64,000 bases of DNA from Patescibacteria group bacterium (GTDB lineage Bacteria; Patescibacteriota; Microgenomatia; UBA10105; UBA927): positions 27,474 through 91,473 of the forward strand of contig JBBTWJ010000003.1 of the NCBI GenBank assembly GCA_038062895.1, in the 5' to 3' direction. Within the stretch, counting starts at the first letter, position 1. Each line of letters begins with the position of its first letter. This document shows, piece after piece, positions 48,879-62,213 of the stretch. The translations under genes were made by a program, and so were the position numbers. The notes under the pieces are model-generated. The model was given only the letters and a program-made list of their open reading frames with translations. It was not told the origin of the DNA and did no database searches.

Positions 48879-50177
48879 TTACATTCGCCCTACACCATAA
48901 TACACGAATCCTAATTGTTTGACACGATAGGGATCATAAATGTTGCGCCCATCAAAGAGCACGCGCTCTTTGAGCCCTTTGGCTAATTTGACCAAATCCA
49001 ACTGTCGAAATTCGTTCCATTCGGTAACGACAATCACCGCGTCTGCTCCCAAGACTGCCTCATAAGCGTCCTTCGCATAATAAATTCCAACTGGAAGCAC
49101 TTTCCTCGCATTTGCCACCGAAACAGGATCGTATGCCCGAATACCCGCTCCTTGCGCAATAAGACTGCTAATGATACTCACCGATGGGGCCTCCCGCATA
49201 TCATCGGTATCCGGTTTAAATGAAAGCCCTAAAACTGCAAGCGTTTTCCCTTTCAGATCCCCGTGAAAATGTTGTGTAATCTTTTTGACAAATCGACTTC
49301 CTGCTTCTTTATTCACGTCTTCGACAGCTTTAAGGATTAAAAAATTGTACCCGTAATGAGCGGCTATGGCAATAAGCGCTTTTACATCCTTAGGAAAACA
49401 ACTACCGCCGTATCCTACTCCTGTATAGAGAAAACTTCTCCCGAGACGTTTATCAAGTCCTACTCCATCAAGCACTTTCTCGGCATCAGCGCCGACTTTC
49501 TCGGAGAGAAATGCGATGGCATTGGCAAAAGAAATTTTGGTTGCCAGAAGAGAATTGGAGGCATATTTAATAAGCTCGGCGGTCTCCGGATTACAAAGCA
49601 CCGTCTTACCGTCAATCGATTTATGAAGCTCAAGAAGAAGTTCCTCCGCGCGCTTGGATGTCGTCCCTATGACCACGCGGTCCGGATGAAGTGTATCGTT
49701 TATCGCCGTGCCTTCCCGTAAAAATTCAGGAACGGAAGCAATCGCAAATGATGCACTCCCTGTTTTTGTGCGTTCGAGAATTTCGGAGACTTTTTTATTG
49801 GTCCCGGGCGGCACCGTGCTTTTTGTCACGACCACCTTATAACCCACAAGCGACTTTCCAACGCTTTCTGCAGCAGCGAAAACGCTCGTCAAGTCTGCCT
49901 CACCAGACGGCTTGGGCGGCGTACCGACACAGATGAAGATAATCTCTGAAGGGGTAACCGCATCGTTGTAATCCAATGTAAATCGAAGCCGGCCAGCGAC
50001 AACGTTCCTTTTCACTAACTCCTCGAGTCCCGGTTCATAAAACGGTGCTTTCCCTTTTTTCAAACTCTCAATTTTTTCCTTTGTTCGACCTACGACCCAG
50101 ACGGAATTGCCCAGATCCGCAAATACCGCAGCGGTTACGAGTCCCACATAGCCATGGCCAATAAATGTAATTGTCAT
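48879..50177 (-). CDS. ugd: UDP-glucose 6-dehydrogenase.
   Basis: MTITFIGHGYVGLVTAAVFADLGN dinucleotide-binding motif and the catalytic GGSCFPKDV cysteine motif. The start ATG lies inside the left arm of palindromic element 1. Confidence 0.8.
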   Translation of the reverse strand: MTITFIGHGYVGLVTAAVFADLGNSVWVVGRTKEKIESLKKGKAPFYEPGLEELVKRNVVAGRLRFTLDYNDAVTPSEIIFICVGTPPKPSGEADLTSVFAAAESVGKSLVGYKVVVTKSTVPPGTNKKVSEILERTKTGSASFAIASVPEFLREGTAINDTLHPDRVVIGTTSKRAEELLLELHKSIDGKTVLCNPETAELIKYASNSLLATKISFANAIAFLSEKVGADAEKVLDGVGLDKRLGRSFLYTGVGYGGSCFPKDVKALIAIAAHYGYNFLILKAVEDVNKEAGSRFVKKITQHFHGDLKGKTLAVLGLSFKPDTDDMREAPSVSIISSLIAQGAGIRAYDPVSVANARKVLPVGIYYAKDAYEAVLGADAVIVVTEWNEFRQLDLVKLAKGLKERVLFDGRNIYDPYRVKQLGFVYYGVGRM

Positions 50178-50311
50178 ACCAAGTAGTGAAATTTCGCTGT
50201 TTGTGGTCAAGCCACAAACTTATACTATTTATCCCAACATAACTATCTCCCTCCAGATAGCATCTGCCTACCATGCGTCTCCGCATAAGCGAAATTCTAC
50301 TACCTGGTCAT
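50175..50311. repeat. Intergenic palindromic element copy 1 (137 bp). Arms are CATACCAAGTAGTGAAATTTCGC and GCGAAATTCTACTACCTGGTCAT, around a spacer with two hairpins. It sits between the rmlD stop and the ugd start.
   Basis: The arms are inverted repeats of each other, 17 of 19 nt. Spacer hairpins: atgcg-gaga-cgcat and gtttgtgg-cttga-ccacaaac. Confidence 0.75.
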
Positions 50312-50343
50312 AGAAAAAAAGATGACGCACTTTTCCGCGTCGC

Positions 50344-51198
50344 TTATAAAACCAACCGTACTCCTTCCGAGAAGGGCATCAGGGATACCCCCATGGATTC
50401 TATTTTAGTATTTTTCAATACCGCTTGAAGCGGTCGAGGAGCACGATTCTTATAATACATGGCCCACGTCGTGGATGCAATCTTTGATTCATCTAAATGA
50501 TGTGTGTGTGCAATCAGAACTGCCGCATCATAAGGCGAAAGAGCTTGAGCCCCCACAGCGTGATAAATGCCTGAAGCGTTATTGCCCACTAAACACCGTA
50601 TTACCTGAGCGATATCATCGATAAGGGTTGGCGTAATACGCTGATCTGCCGGAGCAACAATCGACTCGCCTAACCGAAGCTTTTCAATAATACGATGTAC
50701 AAAATCCGGTCGGCCTATCTGCACGGCTCGATAAGGAAAAGCAATCCGCAGAATGAGCCCTGCATTCTGAAGCCCTGTCACAAGCTTCTCTCCCTCACAT
50801 TTTGTCACCGCATACCAACTCTGTGGGTTGGGTTGCGTTTCTTCAGTATATAAGCCTATGCGTCCATCAAAAACGAAATCCGTCGAGAGAAAAAGCACAT
50901 GCATATTGTTGACTCGAGCAGCTTCGACAATGTTACGAGTCCCCTCTACATTCACGCGCCACGCGTTGCTTTTCTCCCCAAGATGCCTCTCTTTTTCCGC
51001 AACATCCAAATCTGTCGTAGCGGCGAAATGAAATACCCACGTAGCTTTCGACGCAGCAAATTTACTCATTACGACATCCTTTTGGGTAATATCGACACCG
51101 GTTTCGAGACTTAAATTTTCAAACTGAAACTCCGGTTGCAGGAGTTGGACTACTCGAGAACCGACAAGTCCGGATAATCCTGTACCTATGATATTCAC
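50344..51198 (-). CDS. rmlD: dTDP-4-dehydrorhamnose reductase.
   Basis: STDFVFDG and YAVTK motifs. Start placed at GTG (MNIIGTGLSGLVGS) with GGGGG 7 nt upstream. The track's 5' extension to 51330 reads through the palindromic element. Confidence 0.7.
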   Translation of the reverse strand: MNIIGTGLSGLVGSRVVQLLQPEFQFENLSLETGVDITQKDVVMSKFAASKATWVFHFAATTDLDVAEKERHLGEKSNAWRVNVEGTRNIVEAARVNNMHVLFLSTDFVFDGRIGLYTEETQPNPQSWYAVTKCEGEKLVTGLQNAGLILRIAFPYRAVQIGRPDFVHRIIEKLRLGESIVAPADQRITPTLIDDIAQVIRCLVGNNASGIYHAVGAQALSPYDAAVLIAHTHHLDESKIASTTWAMYYKNRAPRPLQAVLKNTKIESMGVSLMPFSEGVRLVL

Positions 51199-51208
51199 GG
51201 CTGTCCCC

Positions 51209-51344
51209 CATACCAGGTAGTAGATGTTCGATATTTCTCTTCGAAAAATGTGCTTCTGGTCATATATATTACCTCGTGTACAAAAGTGCTCATTGCTAAG
51301 CCTGTGCGCCCGACACACACAATCGAACATTCACTACCTGGCAT
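51209..51344. repeat. Intergenic palindromic element copy 2 (136 bp), lying between rmlB and rmlD. The right arm encodes the last codons and stop of rmlB.
   Basis: CATACCAGGTAGTAGATGTTCGA ... TCGAACATTCACTACCTGGCAT. The rmlB stop TAG is at 51334-51336, inside the right arm. Confidence 0.75.
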
Positions 51345-52344
51345 ATTGCTTTTTATAATATTCTTGATACTCCCTTGATTTGACGCGTTTCCACCATGAT
51401 TCGTGCGCTTTGTACCATGCAATGGTCTTACTCAACGATGTATCAAAATCGCAACTCGGCTGCCATCCTAACTCCTTTTGAATCTTGCTCCAATTAATCG
51501 CATACCGCCGGTCATGTCCCGGCCGGTCTTTGACAAACTCAATCGAACTGGCGCTTTCGCCCATAAGGCCAAGAATCTTTTTGACGACGGACAGGTTGTC
51601 AATATCACTAGTCTGTCCGCCAACACAATATGTTTCACCTACTTTTCCTCGCGTCAAGACAGCGTCGATTGCACGGCAATGATCTTCTACATACAGCCAA
51701 TCCCGTATATGATGTCCATCACCATATACCGGCACTTTTTTTCCTTCCAGGATATTGGTAATCGCAAGCGGAATAAGCTTTTCCGGAAAGTGGTACGGAC
51801 CAAAATTATTTGAACAGTTGGTAATTGTAACCGGAAGACCATACGTTTCATAATATACACGTACAAGATGATCAGAACTTGCCTTACTGGCGGAATATGG
51901 ACTTCTGGGGTTATATGGTGTTCGTTCATCAAACTTACTCAAAGTCCCAAGTTTAAGCGATCCGAATACTTCATCTGTTGATATATGATGAAACCGGGAG
52001 ATCTTGGCTTTCGTCGCCGCCTCAAGCAGAATATAGGTTCCGAGAATATTCGTCGTGATAAACGGCGCGGGTTCAAGTATTGATCTATCAACATGGCTCT
52101 CGGCCGCAAAATGCACTACTACATCAACTCCCTCAAGCGCTTTTTTGACCACATCAGGATCACAAATATCGCCATGAATGAATGTATATTTTGGATTACC
52201 CTCTACGTCTTCAAGATTTTCTAAATTTCCGGCGTATGTAAGCTTATCCAAATTTACAACACTATCTGCCGAATGCTCATGCATCCAATAGAGGATAAAG
52301 TTAGACCCGATGAATCCGGCTCCCCCGGTAACCAATAGTTTCAT
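51334..52344 (-). CDS. rmlB: dTDP-glucose 4,6-dehydratase.
   Basis: [27 protein letters not shown] and strong family-wide similarity. Confidence 0.85.
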
Positions 52345-52814
52345 GTTATATTCTTATTTGTAATCTCCATCCCCTGCACCCAGTCGTAACCAATTTCGCG
52401 ATCATCATAGGGAATACGACCTTCCTCATCTTTGTGGTAAGTACCACTGGTTACGTAAACTAATTCTGCCGGTCCTTTCATCACTTTTAACCCATGCGCG
52501 ACACCTGCGGGGATTTTAAGAATGATATCCTGATTTTCCGCGCCCAGCAGAAACTCATTCAGTTCTTTGTATGTACGACTTTCTTTCCTCACGTCATACA
52601 GAGCCGCCTTTATGGTCCCTTTTACGACATACCACCAATCAATCTGTGTTTTATGGACATGCCAGGCTTTCACCACCCCGGCAATCATGGAAGAACGTGA
52701 AAGCTGCCCAAATCCTTCTGCAAATATGGGGTCGGTGACACGGATGAGCTCTTCAAAAAAACCACGTTCGTCTGGATGCCGTGTAAGCTCCTTGATTTGT
52801 ACTCCATCAATCAT
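52341..52814 (-). CDS. rmlC: dTDP-4-dehydrorhamnose 3,5-epimerase (cupin).
   Basis: HPDERGFF...WHVHK...GVAHGL motifs. ATGA overlap with rmlB. Confidence 0.8.
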
Positions 52815-53548
52815 AACTTCCCCTCTTTTACCAGACGCGCAACTTGTTGATTAGCAAACAGAAGCTCGTCGTAGGATGTTCCGGCGTCTATCCACCAGTC
52901 AATAATCTCACAGAGGAGTTCTTGAGCTTTGAGATAATAATTGTTAAGGTCTGTGACCTCAAGTTCTCCCCGTCCGGAAGGCATCAAATGCTTAATATAC
53001 TCAAATACGTGGGCGTCATACATATAAATTCCTGTTTGAGCTATGTCAGACTTGGGATGCTCCGGCTTCTCTTCGATAGATAAGACTTTTCCGCCTTTAT
53101 CTACTTGAATAACCCCATATTGCTTAGACTGGGTGTCTTTGTGCACCCCAAATACCATTGCACCCTTGCCAGCTGCTTCAAACTTCTTCCGAGCTGCAAG
53201 CAGATTAAAATTAAATATATTATCACCCAAAAGAACCAAAATGGGCTCATTGCCCGCAAACTCCTCTGCCAGTGCCACGGCGTCTGCAATGCCGCCTTTT
53301 GGATTCTGCTGGATAGCATAGTAGAGTTTGAGATCAAAATCTTCTCCCGCTTTCAAAAGATTAGCAAAGTGCCCTGCATGATCACCAGATGTCGTCAATA
53401 ACACTTCCTTAATGCCCGCTTTCTGCATAGCCTCAAGCGGATAATAAATCATGGGCTTGTTGTAAATAGGCAACAAGTGTTTATTTGTAACGAGTGTAAG
53501 GGGACGAAGTCTGGTAGCAAGCCCTCCGGCTAAAATGACACCTTTCAT
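52811..53548 (-). CDS. rmlA: Glucose-1-phosphate thymidylyltransferase, short form (245 aa).
   Basis: MKGVILAGGLATRLRPLT nucleotidyltransferase motif. ATGA overlap with rmlC. Confidence 0.75.
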   Translation of the reverse strand: MKGVILAGGLATRLRPLTLVTNKHLLPIYNKPMIYYPLEAMQKAGIKEVLLTTSGDHAGHFANLLKAGEDFDLKLYYAIQQNPKGGIADAVALAEEFAGNEPILVLLGDNIFNFNLLAARKKFEAAGKGAMVFGVHKDTQSKQYGVIQVDKGGKVLSIEEKPEHPKSDIAQTGIYMYDAHVFEYIKHLMPSGRGELEVTDLNNYYLKAQELLCEIIDWWIDAGTSYDELLFANQQVARLVKEGKL

Positions 53549-53560
53549 ATTGGACCTCCT

Positions 53561-53809
53561 CTAATATCCTAAAACAATAAAAAGTAACGTAATGGCTATA
53601 CCGCCAATCATCACGTATTCTATCACAACTTTCCGATGGAGATCCCCCTGCATGGCGTGATGAATCATGCCCCACGCCACATACGCTATGCTCGTCACGA
53701 CACCAATCAGGAGTTGCAAGACGGTATTCCCCCGAGTCGCAATAAACATTCCAACGCCACTCGTAAGGATCAAAATAAGAACAATAAAATGAAAAATGTG
53801 CACGTTCAT
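53561..53809 (-). CDS. Small membrane protein (2-3 TM), unknown function.
   Basis: 82-aa hydrophobic ORF tightly packed between rmlA and the CAP-domain gene. Confidence 0.35.
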   Translation of the reverse strand: MNVHIFHFIVLILILTSGVGMFIATRGNTVLQLLIGVVTSIAYVAWGMIHHAMQGDLHRKVVIEYVMIGGIAITLLFIVLGY

Positions 53810-53815
53810 ATACTC

Positions 53816-54724
53816 CTAAAGAATTGCGCCTCTCGTCGCTATCTGTAAAAGGAAAAGCATCACGGCAAAAAACGCCATATGACCCACACTATGACCGGAA
53901 ACCCTGACAATCCTTCTTCTATATACATACCAACCATCCAACGCCACAACGAGAAGGATGAATCCCATAAATCCTGTCGTAACATATTTGGACAATCCCG
54001 ATATATCAACAACAGGCCGCACAAACACATCGGTCAATCCAAATATACTTTTTCGGGCGGCAACAGCAGCAAGTGACTGTTCTTCTTTCGGTGATACGGA
54101 CCCTGTTGTTGTAGCGGCGGACGGAGTAAGAATTGTAGGCTTAATCTGGTAGGCGATCTGACTGTCACCGGCGCCAAACATCTGAACAACAAGTGTTGTT
54201 TCTTCTCCGCCTATATGACCGTTCACCACAGCAAAACCTATATCTTTGTAATCCGCACGCATGATGTTCTCCTTATGCGTGGGAGAAGCCATCCATGCAT
54301 CCACAACTCCATTACTCATTGAAAAATTCTTCGCAAGATTTTCTCCTGCCACGCGATAATGATATCCTGCAATGGAAATAAAGGACCACGGAGTCTTCCC
54401 ATTGGGATTATTGTGAGCCCAATAATCGTCAGTGAACATATCTTGAGCTTTCAGTGCGGCGGCACGCGATAGCCGCTGATCAAGCGCCAATGGGGTAAGC
54501 CCTGCTTCTGCGCGTCTCGCATTAGTGCCTGCGAGCAACTGCTCAACCCGTATATCCGTGGCATACCCAAGCACATCAGGAAACTGCGCGTACCCAAGCG
54601 AAAGCAGGGACCGAAATAATACAAACGCCAAGAAATATACAAACATCGCATCGATATGAAGAACGCGCGCATGATGATTATTGGTCTGATGCGGAGTAAA
54701 TAAATGACGAAGAAAATCACCCAT
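53816..54724 (-). CDS. CAP/SCP/PR-1 domain protein (YkwD-like), membrane-anchored.
   Basis: YWAHNNPNGKTPW...AGENLAKNF...AWMASPTHKENI CAP-domain motifs. Start refined to the ATG inside the left arm of palindromic element 3 (track 54829). Confidence 0.6.
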   Translation of the reverse strand: MGDFLRHLFTPHQTNNHHARVLHIDAMFVYFLAFVLFRSLLSLGYAQFPDVLGYATDIRVEQLLAGTNARRAEAGLTPLALDQRLSRAAALKAQDMFTDDYWAHNNPNGKTPWSFISIAGYHYRVAGENLAKNFSMSNGVVDAWMASPTHKENIMRADYKDIGFAVVNGHIGGEETTLVVQMFGAGDSQIAYQIKPTILTPSAATTTGSVSPKEEQSLAAVAARKSIFGLTDVFVRPVVDISGLSKYVTTGFMGFILLVVALDGWYVYRRRIVRVSGHSVGHMAFFAVMLFLLQIATRGAIL

Positions 54725-54863
54725 ACCAGGTAGTAGAACTTCGCAGTTCCTCATCGGAACAACAAAATTATCCTCCCTTCGTTGATAAACATATTGTATA
54801 TAGCCAACGAGTGCTCTACTTTGATGCATTTACTGCATCAAGCGAAGTTTCACTACCTGGCAT
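54722..54863. repeat. Intergenic palindromic element copy 3 (142 bp), upstream of the CAP-domain gene.
   Basis: CATACCAGGTAGTAGAACTTCGC ... GCGAAGTTTCACTACCTGGCAT. Spacer hairpins: cttgatgca-gtaaa-tgcatcaag and gttcc-gatga-ggaac. Confidence 0.75.
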
Positions 54864-54909
54864 ACAGTACTATCATAGCAACCTCACAGTAAATTACCAA
54901 CGCCAGGAT

Positions 54910-55830
54910 TTACAATGGGTAGCGATCACCTTCGTACACAGGAGCAACCGTCTGTCCAACGGGTAAGCCATTGATGGGGACACCAAGAAGGACGCCAAGC
55001 ATATTGGCTATGGCGATCCCCACCCGAAGCCCTGTATAGGATCCGGGGCCAACAGAAACGGTAATTGCCGTAACATCGTCAAACGTTAACTCTTGCTCTT
55101 TAAAAAGCTCCTCAACCATCGGTAGAACTTCTTGTGCTTTCGCTTTTGATAACGGTTTTTCTAATGCGTGTTGCCCACGATCGCTCGTTTTTACAGCAAC
55201 TCGAATCACCTCTGATCCGGAAGAATCAATAATGAGGACAACCCCGTGAAGAACGATGGAGCCCTGACGTATTATCTGATAGGGACGAACGCTACAATCA
55301 ACCACCGTAGAAGCACCCTTCACGGAGCATTCACCTGGTACAACGTAATCCACGAGTCTGACGAGCTCCGGATCAAGATCATCAAACCGGTAGGGAGTCG
55401 GATTGCCGTGAAAGTTGGCTGAAGGCCCGAGAATTGGCACGCCCACACCCCGGATAAGCGCCAACGCGGCCTCGTGATGAGGCATCCGTAAACCAATATT
55501 TATTCCATCGCCACGGATAGGGGAGTATACCAGCTCTTTTTTGCATGGCGCGATAATAGTAAGTGCACCCGGCCAGTATTTTTTTATGAGATGTCGTACA
55601 ATTTGCGGAGGATCAAGATAGTAGGAGAGTGCTTGCTTCTCTGAAGACACGAGCACGGGTGTCGCCTGTGTCAATGGGCGTCTGCGTAATGCAAACAATC
55701 TGTCAACAGCTTTCATATCATCCATCCGGCACCCTATACCGAATGCCGTATCCGTCGGAAAAATAACGATGCCCCCATTACTTAGTATATGTATCGCTTT
55801 ATTAATCAGTTCTTTATTTTGTGTTTCCAT
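54910..55830 (-). CDS. Fusion of TsaC/YrdC (L-threonylcarbamoyladenylate synthase) with an N-terminal TsaB/YeaZ-like domain at its C-terminus.
   Basis: N-terminal half: GGIVIFPTDTAFGIGC...GPSANFHG (YrdC fold). C-terminal half: LIIDSSGSE...ITVSVGPGSYTGLRVGIAIANMLG (TsaB/Kae1-type motif). Start ATG METQNK (the track uses an upstream TTG). Confidence 0.65.
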   Translation of the reverse strand: METQNKELINKAIHILSNGGIVIFPTDTAFGIGCRMDDMKAVDRLFALRRRPLTQATPVLVSSEKQALSYYLDPPQIVRHLIKKYWPGALTIIAPCKKELVYSPIRGDGINIGLRMPHHEAALALIRGVGVPILGPSANFHGNPTPYRFDDLDPELVRLVDYVVPGECSVKGASTVVDCSVRPYQIIRQGSIVLHGVVLIIDSSGSEVIRVAVKTSDRGQHALEKPLSKAKAQEVLPMVEELFKEQELTFDDVTAITVSVGPGSYTGLRVGIAIANMLGVLLGVPINGLPVGQTVAPVYEGDRYPL

Positions 55831-55860
55831 AGTGCTTCTCAATAATTTCTAAATTCTAAT

Positions 55861-56367
55861 TTAGGTCAATTTTACAATCGCTATTCGATGCGTATCGTCC
55901 GATAAAATGGAGAACCGGATCTCTATTCGGCGTTTCGGGAGCAAACTACCGAGTTTTTCTGCCCATTCAATAAGGACAATTGAATCAGGATCAGCTAAAA
56001 TTTCCGGTAAGCCTAACTCCACGAGTTCTTTTTCGCCCATTACACGATAAAGATCCATGTGATAAAAAAAACCGACGCTATGAGGCATTGAATAACGTCG
56101 TACAATAAAAAAGGTCGGGGAGGGCAGGCGAGAGGTTATTCCACAGGTTTTTGCCAATCCCTGAACAAACGTCGTCTTCCCGCTCCCTAAATCTCCATAG
56201 AGACATACAGTTGTGGCTCCAGACCATCCACTCCCCTTTTTCCGTCTTGTCCCGAGTCTTTCCGAGGGATTACCTTTATCCTTTTTCCTTAATACATTCC
56301 CAAGTTCTTGGCCAAGATTCGCAGTTTCTTGGGGGCTCGTGGTACTACGTGACCTAAAAATATCCAT
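55861..56367 (-). CDS. tsaE: tRNA t6A biosynthesis ATPase TsaE (YjeE) with a K/R/G-rich insertion.
   Basis: LYGDLGSGKTTFVQGLAKTCG Walker A, SPTFFIV and HMDLYR motifs. Confidence 0.75.
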   Translation of the reverse strand: MDIFRSRSTTSPQETANLGQELGNVLRKKDKGNPSERLGTRRKKGSGWSGATTVCLYGDLGSGKTTFVQGLAKTCGITSRLPSPTFFIVRRYSMPHSVGFFYHMDLYRVMGEKELVELGLPEILADPDSIVLIEWAEKLGSLLPKRRIEIRFSILSDDTHRIAIVKLT

Positions 56368-56702
56368 ACTCCTCCTGCTCCAATGGCGTCAATTATAACA
56401 TCACGGAACTTTCCCTCTCTGGTTGGGACATAAAGTTGATGAATTTCATCAGTCCCCGCATAAAGAATCGTCAATACAAACGCCATCACGAATACGGTGA
56501 CGCTCGTACCGAAACGAAATGAGGACCGAAGCGCACGGACATATAAGAAAAATAAGATACTGTATTCAATAACGTGAAGCGTTTTGAAAAAAAGAAAGTT
56601 GATGAGTGGTTCCTGGGCAACTTGGACACTTGACCTGCTGGATAAGAAAAAAATAACCGCCATCCAGACGATTGCAGGAAACCAATACCGGATAAACTTC
56701 AT
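56289..56702 (-). CDS. VanZ-like family membrane protein.
   Basis: GTDEIHQLYVPTREGKFRDVIIDAIGAGGVW matches the VanZ signature. Overlaps tsaE by 79 nt. Confidence 0.6.
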   Translation of the reverse strand: MKFIRYWFPAIVWMAVIFFLSSRSSVQVAQEPLINFLFFKTLHVIEYSILFFLYVRALRSSFRFGTSVTVFVMAFVLTILYAGTDEIHQLYVPTREGKFRDVIIDAIGAGGVWIFLGHVVPRAPKKLRILAKNLGMY

Positions 56703-57604
56703 TCGATTAGTATACCAGATCGCTTCTCTTCTTCGTCCTTCATAACCTTCTCACGGGCGATCTTCCAGGTATAAAAACCAGCAAGAATGGCAAGACCGGT
56801 AGCCACAAGTAACAGAGAGATGACAAGCGGCTTCCACGAGTTATTCTGCGTGTACGCGCTAGGCGATGAGTCTTCAATGGTGTCACTTATCCCCAACACT
56901 ATCGGTGTCATCTCCGGCGTTTCAACGGGTATTTCTGTAGGCATCGGAGAAGGTTGTTTCGTGGGCGGCACGTCAAACGTGCCAGCCGCGTTTGACGGCG
57001 GCGTCGGCGAGGGAGTAGTGGGTTTGGGTGTCGATGTAGGAGTCGGTGTCTTGGTTGGGGTAGGCGTAGAAGTTGAGGCTACTGTTGGCTGCGGAGTAGC
57101 AGTGGGAATAAGAGTGGGTGTGGGAGTGAAAGTGGGAGTTGGATCCGGTTCATTCAACGAAACAGTTACCGTATTGTTCGTCCAATTAACAGACGAGGGA
57201 TTTCCCCCTGACGTCGTATAGTAAAACCCTACTTTTACCTTATATTCGCCTTCCCCTTTATACCCACTGTCTGCAAAATCACTCTTCACCGACAGGTTAC
57301 CATCCCAAATATCAACTATTGTTGATCGTTGATTTGTTGAAGTATCTCCATTTTTTATCCAAGAATCACCGCTCTTCGTGTATCCAAAATAATTTGTTGA
57401 ACCTTCCTGATAAAAAGCTCCTTTTATATAAATCGTTTCCCCTGGAGTAAAACCCGACACTGATGCGGTGATGGTCATTTCTTCATCACCAAATAGGGAA
57501 GCTTTGTCAGATGTAATCATTATCGATCTGGCGGCCAACACGTGAGACGGAAATACAATGAAGAAACAGCTACTGATAAAAGCTCCAATAAAAAAGAGTC
57601 TCAT
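56699..57604 (-). CDS. Secreted cell-surface protein with a signal peptide, a Pro/Thr-rich linker and a C-terminal TM anchor.
   Basis: N-terminal FFIVFPSHVLAA signal peptide, a ~60-aa PTPTPT/TPKPT tract, and a C-terminal LVISLLLVATGLAILAGFY helix followed by KIAREK. Confidence 0.6.
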   Translation of the reverse strand: MRLFFIGAFISSCFFIVFPSHVLAARSIMITSDKASLFGDEEMTITASVSGFTPGETIYIKGAFYQEGSTNYFGYTKSGDSWIKNGDTSTNQRSTIVDIWDGNLSVKSDFADSGYKGEGEYKVKVGFYYTTSGGNPSSVNWTNNTVTVSLNEPDPTPTFTPTPTLIPTATPQPTVASTSTPTPTKTPTPTSTPKPTTPSPTPPSNAAGTFDVPPTKQPSPMPTEIPVETPEMTPIVLGISDTIEDSSPSAYTQNNSWKPLVISLLLVATGLAILAGFYTWKIAREKVMKDEEEKRSGILIE

Positions 57605-57948
57605 TTCACATCCCCCTCTCTTGTATGTCGCTCTTTTTTATACGCATACACAAACCGTGACGCATCACTCCCGCCACCTGACCATCCATCTGTTTGATAG
57701 TTCGTAATAAAGTACCGCACTACCCTACGCGCCGCATCTGCGGTAAAGCATTCCCTGTATATCCAATAATCAACATCCTTATTTACTCCATGCCCCTCAA
57801 AGACCCGCGCTTGCGCGTCTATTGCTATGCCCACGTACCACTCTGCCTGTGGCGTATTGGTCATGAGGATATATTCAACTATGTCGTGTATGACCGTGCT
57901 TTCTTGTTGTGGCATAGCCCAAGTGTAGATTGGTGATAGGTGACTCAA
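57601..57948 (-). CDS. Small GIY-YIG nuclease-superfamily protein.
   Basis: YILMTNTPQAEWYVGIAIDAQARVFEGH aligns to the GIY...YIG...R...H core (cf. IYQIKNT....VYVGSAKDFEKRWKRH of I-TevI). Likely start at the internal MPQQ. Confidence 0.45.
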   Translation of the reverse strand: MSHLSPIYTWAMPQQESTVIHDIVEYILMTNTPQAEWYVGIAIDAQARVFEGHGVNKDVDYWIYRECFTADAARRVVRYFITNYQTDGWSGGGSDASRFVYAYKKERHTREGDVK

Positions 57949-57975
57949 CTGCGACTCACACGAGAGTCGGGAAAT

Positions 57976-59307
57976 TTAGGAGAGTTTTGAAGCGAGTGTG
58001 GGGTTTATACAATACTTTTTATCTGTGTGAGAGATGAGCTTCATACCAATCAGCTTTTTTACTTTGATATTTACAGCCTCGACCGCATCATACACAAGTC
58101 GCTTTACGTTTTTCTGCTCGTCGAGTTCTCCCATGGCATCAGACAGATCGAGCGTATCGAATTGTTTCTTGGGATTTATAAAGAGTAATTTGCATATATC
58201 GTGTTGATACGAATCCGGAGGAATATCGATACCATGAATGCCGTTGATAATGATTTTATTTTCTGGTGGATGAAATGCAATTCGATCAACGACAACACAC
58301 TGAGGATAGGTAAGCATTGCCAATCGTTCTTCAATAATTGCCCCGATATCATGACGATAAATAAAAATCGCAAACACAGCAAAGACAAAAACAGAAAGCA
58401 ACCCTGCTATCAATGACAGCAACAACTGATTACCAAGTATCTGGTTGAGCTCATTAAGTCCTTTTCCTACAGCAACGAGGCCGATCATTTCGCCACTGGC
58501 AAGAATAGGTTGAACAAGAAGCATGTACTTCTTTTGCGTGCCGGTATCGGATATAACCGTAAAATCTTTATGAGTAAGAACTTCTTGGAGATAACTCTTA
58601 TCGATATATGCAGGCGGACCCCCAATGCTTTTATGACTTCGATTGAATGGGTCAATGACCTCAAATGAGATATTATGATCAACGTCTGTATCAAGTATAT
58701 GTGTCGCATCAAGTACTTCGTTCGTAACCGTAATCTTGCTGTCTACCATTTGGGCGTTTGCCAGAAGCACTGCATCAATATCCTTCTCCAATCGGCCAGC
58801 CGGCTCAAAGTACCCCAGGAGGATCACGCCTTTTTCCTGGCCGTCCCGTTCAATGCGATAGGAAAATACGCGCCACTTTTCACCAATGGGAGAGGTGATT
58901 GTTTTGGGTAAAGTAAAAGAAGAGGCATACGTAAAATTGGAAGTATCCAAAAGACCGACAATGACGTTTCTGCGGTCAATTAGGAATCCATCAAGCGAGA
59001 AGATATATAGCGGGGTCTCTGAAGGAGTAGTCGTGTCAGACAAATACTTATTGGTATTCCAGGTACCCTTACTGTACTCAAAATCCTGTGAAACGGCTGA
59101 GGCAGTGTTTTTCAAATACTGCTTGAGATCATGAAGCGAGAGAGACCGGATGATGGAGTAGCTGGCGATCAGATACAAAACAAACGCAATAAGAAAGACT
59201 GCGGACAATCGGAGTACGAGAATTACTTCTGTTTTATCTGTATGAAGCGTTTTAATAAAACCAAAGACGTCTAATGTTGCCATGCGCGAGCGAGTTGTTC
59301 GTATCAC
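57976..59307 (-). CDS. Membrane protein with two TM helices flanking an extracytoplasmic domain and a cytoplasmic C-terminal domain (sensor-like, no kinase domain).
   Basis: Hydropathy pattern only; no catalytic motifs. Confidence 0.35.
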   Translation of the reverse strand: MIRTTRSRMATLDVFGFIKTLHTDKTEVILVLRLSAVFLIAFVLYLIASYSIIRSLSLHDLKQYLKNTASAVSQDFEYSKGTWNTNKYLSDTTTPSETPLYIFSLDGFLIDRRNVIVGLLDTSNFTYASSFTLPKTITSPIGEKWRVFSYRIERDGQEKGVILLGYFEPAGRLEKDIDAVLLANAQMVDSKITVTNEVLDATHILDTDVDHNISFEVIDPFNRSHKSIGGPPAYIDKSYLQEVLTHKDFTVISDTGTQKKYMLLVQPILASGEMIGLVAVGKGLNELNQILGNQLLLSLIAGLLSVFVFAVFAIFIYRHDIGAIIEERLAMLTYPQCVVVDRIAFHPPENKIIINGIHGIDIPPDSYQHDICKLLFINPKKQFDTLDLSDAMGELDEQKNVKRLVYDAVEAVNIKVKKLIGMKLISHTDKKYCINPTLASKLS

Positions 59308-59321
59308 AAACCGATCCTATA

Positions 59322-60455
59322 CTACTGCACATGAAGATAAAAACTCAATACCCCATCGCCATGATCAACATATTTAATTTTTATGATACTCCCACTGCCG
59401 CATGCCTGGCTGGATGAATAAAGATCTCCATCACGCGGCGCCCGAATGATGTTGCTGCCGGTTGATACCATATCATACCCCGTATGGATGCCGCCGGAGT
59501 ATTGGTAGCGCCATGAGTATGGAGTCTTCCCGAAATATTGGGTAAGCCTGATGGTATCTTCAAGCGGCCAAGCCCAACTGCCGCTACCGAACGTAGCATC
59601 TCCGCCGTTCTGATCGTCTTTCACCTGCTTAGAGGCCAAGTATCCTCCCGGATCAACCCACGTACCACCTTTTCGAACTTCAAAATGAAGATGCGCGCCC
59701 GTGGAACACCCAGGGTAGCCGGTATTACCTACCACCGCGATTGGATCGCCTTTTTTGACCGGTCCTATTTTGATCGAATCGATAAGCGCACGATCAACCG
59801 CCTGCTTTTCTGCTAGCGCCTGGGAAAGAAGCTTTTGGTACACTGTTTCACTATTTTTTGTCTGCTCCAAAAGCACCAATTTTTCTTTCTTTTGACGGGC
59901 AAGCGAGGCACTTTCCTGCTCAAGCTGCTTTTTAAGTTTTTCCTGCTCAAGCTTTTTCCCTTCACGGAGATTTTTTCTTTCCGCAAAATTGTTTTGGGTA
60001 GCCTTCAGTTGAAAAAGAAGTGCCGCATCATGCTCCTGGATAGTAGAAATATACTTTACTCTGGCAACAAAATCAGAAAACGAACTGCTCAAAAAAAGCA
60101 TGCCGAATTGCGACGTGCCTTTCCTCTTGTATGACTCCGGGATGCGCCGAAGGACGAGCTCGGTGCGCCTGGTCAGTAAATCCTCTAAACGCTCTATTTC
60201 TCCCGCTAGTTCATCTATCTCTGCTGTAAGCTTGGTGACAGCAGATCGGATGGTACTGACACGAAGGGTCGTTAAAGAAATCTGAGAATCCAAAAGTCCT
60301 ATTTGCTTCGATAAGGTATTTTCTTCCTGTTGAAGTTGGAAAATCTTTTTAGTCAGCTCCTCAATCGTTTTATTTACGTCGCCATCTACAGCCTGCGCGG
60401 ATAAATGAGGAAAAAATAATACAATAAGAAGCAACCCTATGCATAATCGTTTCAT
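59322..60455 (-). CDS. M23/LytM-family peptidase with an N-terminal coiled coil (EnvC-like FtsEX-associated murein hydrolase activator).
   Basis: Signal peptide, long coiled-coil region, and C-terminal GNTGYPGCSTGAHLHFEV M23 motif. Adjacent to ftsX-ftsE. Confidence 0.7.
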   Translation of the reverse strand: MKRLCIGLLLIVLFFPHLSAQAVDGDVNKTIEELTKKIFQLQQEENTLSKQIGLLDSQISLTTLRVSTIRSAVTKLTAEIDELAGEIERLEDLLTRRTELVLRRIPESYKRKGTSQFGMLFLSSSFSDFVARVKYISTIQEHDAALLFQLKATQNNFAERKNLREGKKLEQEKLKKQLEQESASLARQKKEKLVLLEQTKNSETVYQKLLSQALAEKQAVDRALIDSIKIGPVKKGDPIAVVGNTGYPGCSTGAHLHFEVRKGGTWVDPGGYLASKQVKDDQNGGDATFGSGSWAWPLEDTIRLTQYFGKTPYSWRYQYSGGIHTGYDMVSTGSNIIRAPRDGDLYSSSQACGSGSIIKIKYVDHGDGVLSFYLHVQ

Positions 60456-60463
60456 TGTACATT

Positions 60464-61360
60464 TTAGAACTTCAAATACCGGCCGACCGCCACTAAGCTA
60501 CCGATACTGCCCAATAAAAATCCGGTTGTTGCAAGCCCGCCAAAAAATATAAATGCTGCGATCAAAAAAGCCGCCGACGTCGGCGCTGCCAATACACTGC
60601 CAATCGCCGGGATGACACCCAAAAATGTGAGCAGAAACGGATACATCCAAAGGGCAAGCGCACCGATAATAATACTCGCGATTCCTGCACCAAAGAGCCC
60701 ATACAATCCCCCCTCTAAAAGGAAGGGCGCACGGATATACCAAGGAGAAGCACCCACTAAATTGAGCACTTCCACTTCCTGCTTTTTGATGGCAATCTTC
60801 ATACCGATGATCGTCATGACGATGAGGATGGAGTCCACTGCCAACAGTCCCGCAAGCGACCCCCCCACCCAACGGATGGCGTTAGTCCAGGAAATGAGCG
60901 TCTCCACCACATCGCGCTGATACACAACTTCCTCAACACCCTCTGACTCTTTGATCACCGCTTCAAGATCTGACAGAAAATTAGGATCGGTTGCCGATAC
61001 TTCAAGCGATGCCGGAAGGATATCTGCCGTCACCATCTCAAGAAGAAGCGGATCATTTTTATTTTGCTGCCGATAAAGAGCCAACGCCTCATCCTTGGTA
61101 ATATATTTGATGCTTACGGTTTTTCCTGTGGCCGTAAGCTCATTTTCAAGATTATGGATACTTTCCTCGCTCGTCTTATCCTGAAAATACACCGTAATCT
61201 GGGGCTTCCCCTCAAAATACTTGAGAACAAAGAAGGAAGCGGTGCTCGCCAAAAAAAACAAACCGGCTAACAGGAGCGTCAAAAACATGGTCAGGATAGC
61301 CGCCATTGCCTGATACGGCGAGCGACGCATATGCCTCCATGCAGTGGTCAGTGAAATCAT
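60464..61360 (-). CDS. ftsX: Cell-division permease-like protein FtsX.
   Basis: Four-TM topology with a large extracytoplasmic loop. Translationally coupled downstream of ftsE (ATGA at 61357). Confidence 0.75.
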   Translation of the reverse strand: MISLTTAWRHMRRSPYQAMAAILTMFLTLLLAGLFFLASTASFFVLKYFEGKPQITVYFQDKTSEESIHNLENELTATGKTVSIKYITKDEALALYRQQNKNDPLLLEMVTADILPASLEVSATDPNFLSDLEAVIKESEGVEEVVYQRDVVETLISWTNAIRWVGGSLAGLLAVDSILIVMTIIGMKIAIKKQEVEVLNLVGASPWYIRAPFLLEGGLYGLFGAGIASIIIGALALWMYPFLLTFLGVIPAIGSVLAAPTSAAFLIAAFIFFGGLATTGFLLGSIGSLVAVGRYLKF

Positions 61361-62064
61361 AGTTTATGAGTCCTGTGCTCCTTTTTGTGTATATGATATC
61401 GTCCGCGGGCTTCATCGCTCACAATCTCACCGTGTTCGAGCGTAATGGTGCGTTTCTTTAAATCATTTACAATACTCGCATTATGCGTTGCCATGATGAT
61501 AGTCGTGCCAATATCATTTATTTCCTGCAGGATATCCAAAATTTCCCATGAAGTTTCCGGATCCAGATTACCCGTCGGTTCATCAGCAAGAAGGACTTTC
61601 GGCCCACCCACGATGGTGCGGGCAATACTTGTCCGTTGCATCTCGCCCGCGGAAAGCTGTTGTGGAAAAAGGTATTTTTTGTTTTCTAGCCCGACAAGCT
61701 CAAGCACCTTATCTACGTCTCTGGTAATTTCCGGCTCTCTTTTACCGATTATTTCCAAAGCCAACGCAACGTTTTCAAACACCGTGCGGTCAGACAATAG
61801 TTTAAAATCCTGAAATACGACCCCAACACGACGCCTCAAAAGATGAATGCTCGAATCGGGAAGCGTGTTAATTTTCCAATCATCAAGCATGATATCTCCC
61901 TCGGTCGGCACCATTTCACGCGTAAGGAGCTTGAGAAATGTGGTCTTGCCAGCGCCGGACGGGCCGATGAGAAAGACAAATTCTCCGTCTTTAATGGTCA
62001 CGGAGACTTGAGAAAGGGCGTGGGTTTCCCCATAGAGTTTGGTGACACGGTCAAAGGAAATCAT
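61357..62064 (-). CDS. ftsE: Cell-division ABC ATPase FtsE.
   Basis: MISFDRVTKLYGE...GPSGAGKTT Walker A, LSAGEMQR signature and LLADEPTGNLD Walker B. The start ATG lies inside the left arm of palindromic element 4 (track extends to 62115). Confidence 0.85.
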   Translation of the reverse strand: MISFDRVTKLYGETHALSQVSVTIKDGEFVFLIGPSGAGKTTFLKLLTREMVPTEGDIMLDDWKINTLPDSSIHLLRRRVGVVFQDFKLLSDRTVFENVALALEIIGKREPEITRDVDKVLELVGLENKKYLFPQQLSAGEMQRTSIARTIVGGPKVLLADEPTGNLDPETSWEILDILQEINDIGTTIIMATHNASIVNDLKKRTITLEHGEIVSDEARGRYHIHKKEHRTHKL

Positions 62065-62213
62065 TCCAGGTAGTAGAAACTCGATAATTGTTTCTGTTTT
62101 TCGCTCGCTTAACAATTTTGTTAATTGATCAATAAATACAATACTCTGGCCGGTAGCGACGAAACAATTTGGCTCGCTAATGCGAGCGATCGAGTTTTCA
62201 CTACCTGGTCATT
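62062..62213. repeat. Intergenic palindromic element copy 4 (152 bp). The left arm carries the ftsE start codon and the right arm carries the stop codon of the 62209..62691 ORF.
   Basis: CATTCCAGGTAGTAGAAACTCG ... TCGAGTTTTCACTACCTGGTCAT. Spacer hairpin: gctcgc-atta-gcgagc. Confidence 0.75.

Follow-up and report, generated by a model that had tools for sequence, protein, structure and literature searches.

Four units of 129 to 143 bp in the window (the whole 64-kb stretch of DNA analyzed), here called E1 to E4, are insertions, as judged by comparison with syntenic relatives, and very probably represent ORF-less, MITE-type copies of a mobile family with terminal inverted repeats whose full-length members carry a GIY-YIG nuclease gene. 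As far as sampled, the family is confined to Patescibacteria (CPR), which are ultra-small groundwater bacteria. We found no description in the literature of these elements combined with a GIY-YIG nuclease gene, and an element with such a tiny gene as its sole cargo is, as far as we could find, an undescribed combination.

Four arm-bounded units in the window

The arm pattern CCAGGTAGTRRAANNTCG, with up to 2 mismatches allowed, matched the window eight times where 0.08 matches were expected, giving four convergent pairs of inverted arms that lie 89 to 103 nt apart. These are the four elements already marked in the first-pass annotation, and the pattern found no further copy within the 64 kb. 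The arms had been described as about 20 to 23 bp long; the inverted repeat is real, but it spans exactly 20 bp (CCAGG...), with a central G·T/A·C mismatch in every case, and the CAT/ATG lies outside it, in flanking direct repeats of 4 to 5 bp that read TATG, TATG, TATGA, and AATGA in gene sense. A fifth copy in the same genome is located 5.9 kb outside the window start (L212, 7984 to 8116), so the apparent clustering within 12 kb is less marked than it first seemed. The local proliferation suggested from that cluster also finds no support in the interiors of E1 to E4, which are mutually 47 to 61% identical versus an average of 58% for random family pairs.

All four elements lie on the minus strand. 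E1 (50179 to 50307; 129 bp, class II) is located between rmlD and ugd. In gene sense, its 5′ arm, CCAGGTAGTAGAATTTCGCT, occupies positions 50288 to 50307 and its 3′ arm positions 50179 to 50198. The target-site duplication reads TCATA on the plus strand at both the gene-proximal (50174 to 50178; TATGA in gene sense) and the distal (50308 to 50312) side, and the ATG that starts ugd, encoding UDP-glucose 6-dehydrogenase (50177 to 50175), lies in the gene-proximal repeat. The arm types of E1 are swapped relative to the gene direction, but its interior motif, a sense-strand GCTATCTGG at about 46 nt, is oriented as in E2 to E4; rather than being a plain inverted copy, E1 represents a second class of arms. 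E2 (51213 to 51341; 129 bp, class I; 5′ arm CCAGGTAGTGAATGTTCGAT at 51322 to 51341, 3′ arm at 51213 to 51232) is inserted in the last codons of rmlB, 11 nt ahead of the rmlD GTG, and the rmlB TAG (51336 to 51334) falls within its arm core, CCAGG-TAG. The duplication is CATA on the plus strand (51209 to 51212, gene proximal, TATG in gene sense; 51342 to 51345, distal). As noted previously, the ATG in the gene-proximal repeat is out of frame with rmlD, which starts at a GTG 11 nt downstream.

E3 (54726 to 54860; 135 bp, class I; 5′ arm at 54841 to 54860, 3′ arm at 54726 to 54745) occupies the junction between a tsaC-tsaB fusion gene and a CAP/YkwD-family gene and is flanked by CATA on the plus strand (54722 to 54725, gene proximal; 54861 to 54864, distal). 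The CAP-domain gene starts with the ATG of the gene-proximal repeat (54724 to 54722), and the ATG of the distal repeat opens a 15-codon ORF reading into the arm. E4 (62066 to 62208; 143 bp, class I; 5′ arm at 62189 to 62208, 3′ arm at 62066 to 62085) is located between an ORF of 160 aa and ftsE, flanked by TCATT on the plus strand (62061 to 62065, gene proximal, AATGA in gene sense; 62209 to 62213, distal). Its gene-proximal repeat supplies the ftsE start codon (62064 to 62062) and its distal repeat the TGA of the 160-aa ORF (62211 to 62209). The earlier view that the arms carry start and stop codons is thus correct for the rmlB TAG; because the CAT/ATG belongs to the flanking direct repeat, the starts of ugd, the CAP gene, and ftsE, as well as the TGA of the 160-aa ORF, come from the duplication instead.

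A search for empty orthologous sites had been proposed as a check on mobility, and precise, uninterrupted junctions were present at 4/4 sites in syntenic relatives (L117, L118, L120, L121, L129, and L138). The empty E1 site reads (T/A)ATGACAAT in L117, L121, and L138, and the E2 site is an uninterrupted CAATATGGAGAC in L118. At the E3 site, the sequence is TATGATAATTATATGGAGCATTTCCTGCGTCATTT in L118, whereas in the window TATGATAGTACTGTATG and TATGGGTGATTTTCTTCGTCATTT stand on either side of the element, and the E4 junction is empty in L118, L120, L121, and L129. Excision in silico of E2 plus one repeat (51213 to 51345) gives an RmlB ending in KKQYGGQP, with a TGA overlapping the rmlD GTG, and excision of E4 restores a C-terminal ILE with a stop/start overlap. 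The return of these overlaps, GTGA for E2 and ATGA for E4, agrees with the mobile-element reading.

Arms, target sites, and mobility across the family

A scan of one genome per species yielded more than 111 matching stretches in at least ~63 assemblies, as expected of the miniature inverted-repeat element between operon genes that had been envisaged. The lineage-labeled hosts are all Patescibacteria, except for some TPA bins labeled otherwise; some bins are unclassified. At least 17 copies are present in GW2011_GWB1_40_14. Across many genomes, the genes downstream of the copies are functionally unrelated, which gives no support to the suggested operon-specific regulation.

The arms were compared in 122 copies, retrieved by a search pattern in which arm positions 1 to 9 and 12 are fixed. 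Positions 1 to 20 are paired in 96 to 100% of copies except at positions 10 and 11, conservation at positions 1 to 9 and 12 being partly by construction, and pairing falls to 25% at position 21, which makes the inverted repeat exactly 20 bp. Positions 10 and 11 form a fixed central mismatch (G·T and A·C, each in 121/122 copies), positions 13 to 20 use three to five pair types each, and the interior of about 90 to 105 nt is highly variable. The pairing of one AGA-type with one GAA-type arm, first noticed in the window, is general (117/118 copies elsewhere, with a pattern that permitted any RR/YY combination). A significance of the CCWGG site noticed in the arm is not supported, as functional-looking copies have CCGGG, CCCGG, or CCAAG cores.

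Target-site duplications, the other proposed check, are present and variable in sequence. An exact 4-bp duplication flanks 79/122 copies, with TATG (43 times) and CATA (15 times) joined by CTCA, TTGA, CGTG, CTTG, TGTA, GATA, and TAAA; the duplicated target is 4 bp with the consensus YATR, overwhelmingly TATG. In 93/122 copies (76%), an ORF of ≥60 codons begins at the ATG at offset 0/+1, versus only about 21% of unoccupied non-coding TATG/CATA sites located at starts, an enrichment based on crude ORF calling. Most surviving copies sit exactly on a start codon, giving one ATG to the downstream gene and leaving one at the far end. The arm sequence, CCAGG-TAG-TGA or CCAGG-TAG-TAG, stops upstream ORFs that enter it, and 31 such ORFs end at the arm's TAG in the 122 copies. 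Together, the duplicated ATG and the stop codons of the arm account for the impression that start and stop codons are part of the arms.

Three same-genome pairs of ORF-less copies (L087/L116, L033/L049, and L105/L059) have interiors that are 99%, 89%, and 84% identical within unrelated flanks, and this comparison shows that copies without an ORF transpose in their own right. Between the orthologs L012 and L023, 40/40 arm positions are identical, versus 79% for the interior and 66 to 79% for the flanks, which we count as a probable sign of selection on the arms.

Full-length relatives carry a GIY-YIG nuclease gene

In full-length members of about 310 to 330 bp, the only ORF is a stand-alone GIY-YIG nuclease gene of ~88 aa. 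Seven loci (L032, L197, L200, L206, L207, L208, and L209), which were reached via protein search and not via the DNA arm pattern, were inspected, and in 7/7 the arms, the mismatch, and the duplication surround the GIY-YIG ORF, with the element immediately upstream of a host gene and the nuclease gene co-oriented. Their arm cores vary in a compensatory manner (CCAGGCAGT/ACTGCCTGG, CCAGGAAGT/ACTTCCTGG, and CCCGGTAGT/ACTACCGGG). Protein termini encoded by the arms (MPGSENS..., ...LLPG, and ...STTW) occur in 44 of the best 120 GIY-YIG homologues, and the catalytic residues (Tyr, Tyr, Gly, Arg, His, Asn, and Glu) are invariant. The nuclease matches Pfam GIY-YIG (2.9e-18), its closest solved structures are UPF0213 (1zg2, 2e-6; 1ywl, 3.6e-4) and SLX1 (7wme, 1.4e-3), and it consists of the bare catalytic domain, with no DNA-binding domain evident. 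ORF-less and GIY-YIG forms share a contig in L032, L077, and L206, in the last case in tandem. Because they have the arms, mismatch, duplication, and position in common with these members, the window copies are assigned to the GIY-YIG-associated element as its ORF-less form. Neither the nuclease link nor the start-codon target appeared in the first-pass annotation.

Proposed mechanism and alternative explanations

Insertion duplicates 4 bp of the target, mostly TATG at a start codon. We infer that the nuclease mobilizes the element: the UPF0213/SLX1-like protein would supply in trans the cleavage that moves both ORF-less and full-length forms, plausibly by recognizing a hairpin or cruciform formed by the arms and making 4-nt staggered cuts, which would produce the target-site duplication. 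Under this 4-nt stagger, the fixed orientation of the element would follow from TATG not being palindromic. To our knowledge, the GIY-YIG nucleases characterized so far make nicks or breaks with short 3′ overhangs; none is known to make cuts staggered by 4 nt or to serve as a transposase. Complementary arm variation is also expected if one protein binds both duplex ends and is therefore no proof of a hairpin intermediate. The nuclease gene might instead travel as a passenger, or it might be a homing gene parasitizing the element. It is possible, if doubtful, that the MITEs are moved by a conventional transposase (e.g., DDE) with the GIY-YIG gene in such a role, since 20-bp terminal inverted repeats and a 4-bp duplication at the roughly palindromic YATR are hallmarks of DDE-type elements. 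Neither the 64-kb window nor 20 kb of same-genome flank (84 kb in all) contained a GIY-YIG gene, and the gene family also moves independently, because genomes with family members hold more distantly related GIY-YIG ORFs in partial duplications of tRNA genes that lack arms (L055, L087, and L072). However, about 780 kb of Patescibacteria DNA yielded no larger unit with these arms, the seven close homologues inspected are all arm-bounded with nothing else inside, and the gaps between ORF and arm, only 8 to 10 nt and 0 to 20 nt, leave no MITE-interior remnant as a homing target.

The elements might instead be primarily host-selected cis-acting RNA modules (an RNase III-type stem or a start-codon switch) for which mobility is only the origin, a reading we consider unlikely. 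Folding, as had been recommended, predicts the 20-bp stem (minimum free energy of −50 to −59 kcal/mol), but it does so equally on the antisense strand, and arm-arm similarity is typical of any terminal-inverted-repeat transposon, so the stem does not prove an RNA function. In favor of an RNA module are also the arms of L012/L023, kept despite diverged interior and flanks, and an interior orientation locked to the downstream gene: sense-strand ACTAYCTGG is present in 49/91 copies (shuffles average 12), versus 10 for the antisense version (chance, 14). The elements contain orientation-specific decoy partners for the 5′ outer core (51% of copies; shuffles, 14%) and the 3′ inner arm (44% of copies; shuffles, 12%), mirror combinations are not enriched, and crossing helices covary in some subfamilies. 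Nevertheless, copies precede unrelated genes, the genes of syntenic relatives work without elements, the closed stem is favored over the open fold by ~14 kcal/mol, no Rfam family matches, and orientation is confounded with replication direction, the genes and GC skew of the window all being co-directional. Within the mobile-family reading, the elements may have a subsidiary RNA-level role: in polycistronic mRNA, the arms would pair as a 20-bp stem beside the start codon, and the orientation-locked decoy segments may limit the stem's damage to translation.

That the short elements are in-situ deletion remnants of the full-length element, not independently mobile, is improbable. The common position and orientation of short and long forms would fit, as would a 205-nt arm-bounded unit (L077, 5333 to 5536) that keeps the first codons of the nuclease ORF, but the short interiors have common motifs missing from that ORF, and ORF-less interiors of 84 to 99% identity recur at unrelated sites of one genome; for several lineages, these same-genome pairs already contradict deletion. 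Scarcely credible is the idea of invertible promoter switches (invertons) or of single-strand hairpin recombination sites of the attC or IS200/IS605-REP type, which is prompted by inverted repeats around about 100 bp in a polysaccharide locus, the swapped arm types of E1, and a fixed stem mismatch recalling the extrahelical bases of attC sites. Five near-identical assemblies have one and the same orientation, the interior keeps a constant orientation with respect to the gene, no promoter excess was found, the arms are without attC R′/R″ core sequences, and neither a recombinase nor a Y1 transposase adjoins the copies inspected. Copies are flanked by duplications of variable sequence; we know of no inversion or attC/HUH chemistry that yields these.

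Comparison with known systems

The elements resemble Correia/NEMIS (Neisseria), ERIC/IRU (enterobacteria), and RUP (Streptococcus pneumoniae), which are likewise ~100 to 150 bp long and ORF-less, with terminal inverted repeats, a target-site duplication, and many copies per genome between operon genes, and can form a long mRNA stem; RNase III processing of Correia elements is established. The sequences are unrelated, the host here is Patescibacteria, and Correia elements duplicate TA, in contrast to 4 bp at YATR/TATG. Also distinct from those MITEs are the location of 76% of copies exactly on a start codon, the fixed central mismatch (121/122), and an arm-sharing coding relative whose product is a GIY-YIG nuclease instead of a DDE transposase. 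Free-standing GIY-YIG homing genes (I-TevI and phage T4 Seg) are also small selfish genes wedged between co-oriented, co-transcribed host genes. They encode an additional domain for DNA binding, target a single cognate site within a conserved gene, and spread by recombination-dependent homing without inverted repeats or target duplications, whereas a bare ~88-aa domain with 20-bp arms and a duplication occupies many unrelated sites here.

UPF0213/YhbQ-type proteins and SLX1 provide the closest solved structures, with similar size and identical catalytic residues. SLX1 cuts branched and hairpin DNA, which would fit a putative hairpin-arm substrate; the similarity is modest, activity on the arms is putative, and we know of no member of these groups that is mobile or bounded by inverted repeats. 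Integron attC sites, IS200/IS605, PATEs, and REP/RAYT share imperfect palindromes with structure and specific mismatches conserved above sequence, a tetranucleotide target beside the hairpin foot, and a strong orientation bias, but their enzymes are tyrosine recombinases or HUH Y1 transposases, and no target duplication arises, whereas the duplication here is variable and no such enzyme adjoins the copies inspected. The IS5/PIF-Harbinger-Tourist and IS630/Tc1-Stowaway systems have unrelated termini and coding partners unlike the one here, which totals 310 to 330 bp and has no DDE domain; they nevertheless share with these elements a short near-palindromic target (YTAR or TA there, YATR here) and a population in which non-autonomous copies far outnumber coding ones and have only the termini in common with them.

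Structure and gene setting of the window elements

A search of the window with the arm consensus, allowing up to two mismatches, returned eight matches arranged as four convergent pairs, with 0.08 expected from shuffled sequence. These pairs are the four elements proposed in the first-pass annotation: E1 (50179 to 50307), E2 (51213 to 51341), E3 (54726 to 54860), and E4 (62066 to 62208), all on the minus strand and 129 to 143 bp in size. A repeat finder recovered the same four pairs, with the inverted repeats 89 to 103 nt apart, and no further comparable inverted pair in the 64-kb window. ORFs opening at the duplicated ATG of the elements were of chance length (8 to 46 codons). The source is a MAG of Patescibacteria (CPR) recovered from groundwater of the Hainich well H41, and all genes around the elements lie on the minus strand. 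On that strand, E4 falls within the order prfB, a 160-aa ORF, E4, ftsE, ftsX, an M23 peptidase gene and onward; further on, the other three elements fall within the order tsaE, a tsaC-tsaB fusion, E3, a CAP/YkwD-family gene, a DUF5656 ORF, rmlA, rmlC, rmlB, E2, rmlD, E1, and ugd. The tsaC-tsaB fusion (54910 to 55842) is one ORF joining a TsaC/Sua5 domain and the N-terminal part of TsaB. A terminator-like hairpin with a T-run lies at 50324 to 50341 (minus strand), directly past the rmlD stop codon and just upstream of E1, and ugd may therefore be transcribed separately. The window itself opens with a short run of GTTTATT-type repeats and inverted copies of them (144 to 241).

The ATG of the downstream gene had been read as part of the proximal arm. 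It does sit at the element ends, but it belongs to a direct repeat outside the arms, which in the sense of the gene is TATGA in E1, TATG in E2 and E3, and AATGA in E4. Local proliferation, suggested earlier from the clustering of the four copies, is not borne out: the window interiors are as dissimilar as those of random family pairs, which indicates old, independent insertions. Nor are the copies confined to a 12-kb stretch, since this genome has a fifth one some 5.9 kb outside the window, on the side of position 1 (7984 to 8116 of the fetched locus L212). This ORF-less copy has the arm-mismatch polarity of E2 to E4 (class I), and a glycosyltransferase gene starts at its TATG duplication. Five copies are thus known from the window plus 20 kb beyond it.

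Arms, target-site duplications, and empty sites

To describe the family, the window's four elements and 118 others were pooled into a set of 122 unique copies, read on the gene strand. The inverted repeat is exactly 20 bp long, with positions 1 to 20 paired in 96 to 100% of the copies and position 21 in 25%. At its center is a fixed mismatch, G·T at position 10 and A·C at position 11, each in 121/122 copies. The combination of one AGA-type and one GAA-type arm, noted in the window, recurs in 117 of the 118 further copies, which were found with a pattern permitting any purine pair. Conservation at arm positions 1 to 9 and 12 is partly by construction because these were fixed by the search pattern. 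Positions 13 to 20 each show three to five pair types across copies while remaining complementary within a copy, and copies found independently through the nuclease protein described below carry arm-core variants with compensatory changes. In an orthologous pair from two Yanofskybacteria (L012 and L023), obtained by targeted comparison where an automatic search with a strict flank filter yielded no pairs, all 40 of the 40 arm positions are kept, the interior is 79% identical, and the flanks are 66 to 79% identical, which places the arms under selection.

An exact 4-bp duplication flanks 79 of the 122 copies and comprises more than 15 different sequences. TATG (43 copies) and CATA (15 copies) predominate and are joined by CTCA, TTGA, CGTG, CTTG, TGTA, GATA, TAAA, and others. 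This variation between copies identifies the repeat as a true target-site duplication, for which YATR is the preferred sequence.

Precise empty sites, which the first-pass annotation had proposed to look for, were found in syntenic relatives retrieved by a metagenome scan with RmlB. Six such loci (L117, L118, L120, L121, L129, and L138; RmlB identity, 63 to 76%) share the gene order and lack the element at all four junctions. At the E2 junction, L118 reads CAATATGGAGACAAGC...GTATGAAC, and its window counterpart is CAATATG, E2, and TATGGGGGACAGCCGTGAAT; at the E3 junction, L118 reads TATGATAATTATATGGAGCATTTCCTGCGTCATTT, and the window reads TATGATAGTACTGTATG, E3, and TATGGGTGATTTTCTTCGTCATTT. 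When E2 and one TATG are removed in silico, RmlB ends in ...KKQYGGQP*, with a TGA overlapping the rmlD GTG. With E2 present, RmlB ends in ...KKQYAR* at the TAG of the arm, having lost four codons and gained a new stop. Removal of E4 in silico restores an ATGA stop/start overlap with ftsE. Taken together, these junctions indicate that the window elements are insertions.

Spread and mobility of the family

The expectation of copies elsewhere was examined by scanning one genome per species with a two-arm pattern, which identified at least 111 stretches in about 63 assemblies. The hosts labelled among the matches listed include Parcubacteria, Yanofsky-, Gottesman-, Doudna-, Portnoy-, Harrison-, Lipton-, Jorgensen-, Terry-, and Giovannonibacteria, and Paceibacterota; also among them are several Hainich bins and unclassified bins named only "bacterium." TPA bins labelled in their records as Saccharibacteria, Gammaproteobacteria, and Bdellovibrionales appear among the listed matches as well. 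Typical copies occur in the Gammaproteobacteria and Bdellovibrionales bins at loci L016, L017, L025, L035, L057, L058, L063, L066, L106, L107, and L110; the labels of these bins may be wrong, or the family may extend to hosts outside Patescibacteria. Genome GW2011_GWB1_40_14 holds at least 17 copies, and viral contigs gave no match to the two-arm pattern. Three same-genome pairs share their interiors within unrelated flanks (L087/L116, 99% identity; L033/L049, 89%; L105/L059, 84%), which shows that ORF-less copies transpose as such.

Several fetched loci contain reduced or compound forms. Mini versions of approximately 67 nt, in which full 20-bp arms surround a 27-nt hairpin, occur at L031 (2872 to 2938), L047 (1861 to 1928), and L062 (5631 to 5697), with their own duplications (TATG, CAAG, and CATG, respectively) and with cores TCAGG, CCAGGAAGT, and CCCGG that have compensatory partners. 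Five tandem 34-nt units at L089 (4209 to 4370), each opening with the arm core CCAGGTAGTAGAGCATAGCACACTGCCTGGCAAG, are arm-derived mini-hairpins. A solo 3′ arm (GTCGAATTTCTACTACCTGG-TATG) at about 5037 to 5068 of L065, directly past a stop codon and on the start codon of the next gene, looks like a deletion remnant. Back-to-back elements share a single 4-bp duplication in L033 (~6231 to 6377), L101 (~3950 to 4102), and L206 (880 to 960), for example, ...CTACCTGG-CATA-CCAGG..., so an element end together with its flank recreates a target.

Start and stop codons at the insertion sites

In 105 of the 122 copies, an outward ORF of at least 60 codons starts no more than 15 nt from the element end, and in 93 of those 105 (76% of the 122) its ATG falls within the duplication, at offset 0 or +1. 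On the other side, the TAG of the arm (CCAGG-TAG-TGA or CCAGG-TAG-TAG) terminates 31 ORFs that enter from upstream. A rough count of the unoccupied TATG/CATA sites in these loci gave 338 at first-ATG starts, 1,261 otherwise non-coding, and 3,436 coding. Starts thus make up about 21% of the tolerable sites, yet 76% of the copies are located there. Either the insertion machinery prefers start regions or selection keeps only such insertions. A displaced Shine-Dalgarno sequence was considered and rejected because SD-like motifs are rare in the upstream flank (9/91 copies); the hosts appear to use A/U-rich leaders. ORFs are open through E2 (window 50344 to 51330) and E3 (53816 to 54829), and the public gene calls include an "RmlD" of 328 aa starting inside E2 and a CAP protein of 337 aa starting inside E3, both likely N-terminal misannotations.

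A coding relative encodes a GIY-YIG nuclease

At locus L032 (538 to 846), the same arms lie 310 bp apart around a 94-aa ORF, MFFYVYVLQS...YIGFTTDLKKRLQEHN. With this ORF as the query, 636 homologs were retrieved (E values up to 1e-10) from CPR MAGs, where they are named GIY-YIG nuclease; the best 120 of the 636 are 84 to 125 aa long. Many of these proteins begin or end within an arm: of the best 120, 34 begin MPGSE(N/T)S..., the translation of ATG plus CCAGGTAGTGAAAATTCG, and 11 end in ...LLPG, ...STTW, or ...STTG, the translation of the other arm, so that arm-encoded residues are present in 44. In each of the seven loci inspected (L032, L197, L200, L206, L207, L208, and L209), 20-nt arms with the central mismatch enclose the nuclease ORF, which takes up the whole interior; outside them is a TATG/ATGA duplication, at whose ATG a co-oriented host gene begins. 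The host genes beside the coding form are unrelated to one another (RecO, LepA, ScpB, and others). ORF-less and coding forms occur together on single contigs in L032, L077, and L206.

The nuclease is a bare GIY-YIG domain of 86 to 100 aa (Pfam PF01541 at 2.9e-18); among solved structures, those of UPF0213 proteins and SLX1 come closest to it. In the full-length relatives the catalytic residues are intact, with Tyr, Tyr, Gly, Arg, His, Asn, and Glu invariant in 33 homologs. In-frame hijacking of the host ATG for the nuclease is not supported: MPGSE in 34/120 is close to the one-third expected by chance, and in L209 the ATG is out of frame. Distant GIY-YIG ORFs (35 to 44% identity) without arms were seen in L055 (4106 to 4339), L087 (5807 to 6043), and L072 (4847 to 5113). 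These sit between partial and complete tRNA gene copies (in L087, a direct repeat of ~55 nt), which looks like a second, different mobility route of this gene family.

Interior sequence and predicted RNA folds

Interiors were analyzed in 91 copies oriented by the downstream gene. The motif ACTAYCTGG(CA), 40 to 52 nt from the 5′ end, is present on the sense strand of 49/91 copies (shuffles: mean, 12; maximum, 22) and at chance level on the antisense strand. Since both mismatch polarities occur (class I, the E2 to E4 type, in 66 copies; class II, the E1 type, in 25), it is the interior and not the arm polarity that is locked to the gene, with the proviso that replication direction is a confounder of element orientation relative to the gene. 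An internal partner of at least 7 bp for the 5′ outer arm core occurs in 51% of the copies (shuffles, 14%), and the 3′ inner arm has a partner just upstream in 44% (shuffles, 12%); the mirror-image arm/partner combinations showed no enrichment. With such pairings, the sense RNA could fold into two hairpins, and the last 9 nt and the AUG would remain free. In both orientations, the closed 20-bp stem is favored over this open fold by about 14 kcal/mol, so any two-hairpin effect would have to be kinetic. The sense strand is only 1.6 kcal/mol better (P = 4e-5), and the modeled equilibrium energetics are weak support at best for the open alternative. Some subfamilies contain helices in crossing order that seem to covary (e.g., TTTGCC...ACGCT...GGCAAA...AGCGT) and whose 3′ partners MAFFT set out of register between rows. 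With Rfam 15, the window and 18 family loci gave no hit at gathering score other than tRNA, and no covariance model matched window positions 50000 to 62400 at E values up to 5.

Proposed mechanism and alternatives

The arms shared between coding and ORF-less forms lead us to favor, with some reserve, the view that the GIY-YIG nuclease mobilizes both. The main rival is a conventional transposase, with the nuclease gene as a passenger. Such an enzyme could account for the lack of a GIY-YIG gene in 84 kb of this genome (the window plus 20 kb beyond); on the other hand, the fetched loci contained no larger, transposase-sized unit bounded by arms, only 205-nt and 310-nt GIY-YIG-related units and the 67-nt minis, and we regard the passenger reading as rather unlikely. 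The first-pass annotation had offered a conserved RNA module as its alternative to a mobile element. A primary role as a host regulatory RNA would suit the gene-locked interiors, and it is harder to reconcile with the empty sites; we consider it improbable, although regulation is possible as a secondary function.

Other candidates were rejected. An inverton is contradicted by the variable target-site duplication, by the same orientation in five assemblies, by an interior orientation fixed relative to the gene, and by the lack of promoter excess: a scan for sigma-70-like promoters gave 20 sites against 21.7 expected, none of them convincing inside elements on the gene strand. Read as a −35 box, the YTGGCA motif has no consistent −10 spacing. 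Integron attC sites and IS200/IS605-type elements make no target duplication and are linked to a tyrosine recombinase or an HUH Y1 transposase, and attC sites have R′/R″ cores. The present elements have a variable 4-bp duplication and a fixed orientation, their arms are without a GTTRRRY-type core, and neither a tyrosine recombinase nor an HUH Y1 transposase gene was found beside the inspected copies.

Under mobilization by the nuclease, the observations could be joined, tentatively and as something short of a probable account, into a new class of prokaryotic DNA transposon whose sole protein is the ~88-aa GIY-YIG nuclease. By analogy with SLX1, which acts on branched DNA, a hairpin or cruciform formed by the 20-bp mismatched arms might be what the nuclease recognizes. 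Again speculatively, the flanking TATG might then be cut with a stagger of 4 nt, leaving non-palindromic sticky ends that host enzymes would religate; such ends would account for the precision of excision, for the TATG target being inherited, and for the fixed orientation. Placement at start codons would let the element be expressed from host operons. The window's ORF-less copies would be MITEs of this transposon, with interiors that may have evolved sense-strand decoys keeping the host start codon translatable.

Significance and comparison with known elements

Patescibacteria, with their tiny, streamlined genomes, are considered poor in mobile elements; here, one family reaches at least 17 copies in a single genome and is spread over many classes of the radiation. 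Its insertions fall on start codons with single-nucleotide precision and rewrite the 5′ ends of mRNAs and the 3′ ends of upstream genes. Gene callers already misannotate the element, as MPGSENS... N termini and as proteins starting inside it, and screens for intergenic "conserved RNA" in CPR genomes will keep rediscovering it. If a stand-alone GIY-YIG nuclease does mobilize these elements, a new enzymatic class would be added to DNA transposition, the widespread UPF0213-like mini-nucleases would gain a function, and a single-protein, sequence-addressed insertion system of ~300 bp would be at hand. A full-text literature search found no description of this element family, and the chance that its coding form is a new class of transposon is substantial.

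In size (below the limit of about 500 bp), absence of coding sequence, arms, variable duplication, empty sites, and multiple copies, the window copies are MITEs in every structural respect. Like Correia, ERIC, and RUP elements, they are cotranscribed with operons. They differ from these in arm sequence, in their Patescibacteria host, and in the 4-bp YATR duplication (that of Correia is TA). They also differ in inserting precisely on start codons and in having a fixed central mismatch, and the greatest difference lies in what kind of coding relative they have. GIY-YIG homing genes share the catalytic domain and its residues with the full-length relatives and not with the window copies. Homing genes carry an extra DNA-binding domain, occupy a single cognate site in a conserved gene, and have neither inverted repeats nor a duplication, whereas the coding form consists of the catalytic domain only, is bounded by arms and a target-site duplication, and is inserted beside unrelated host genes.
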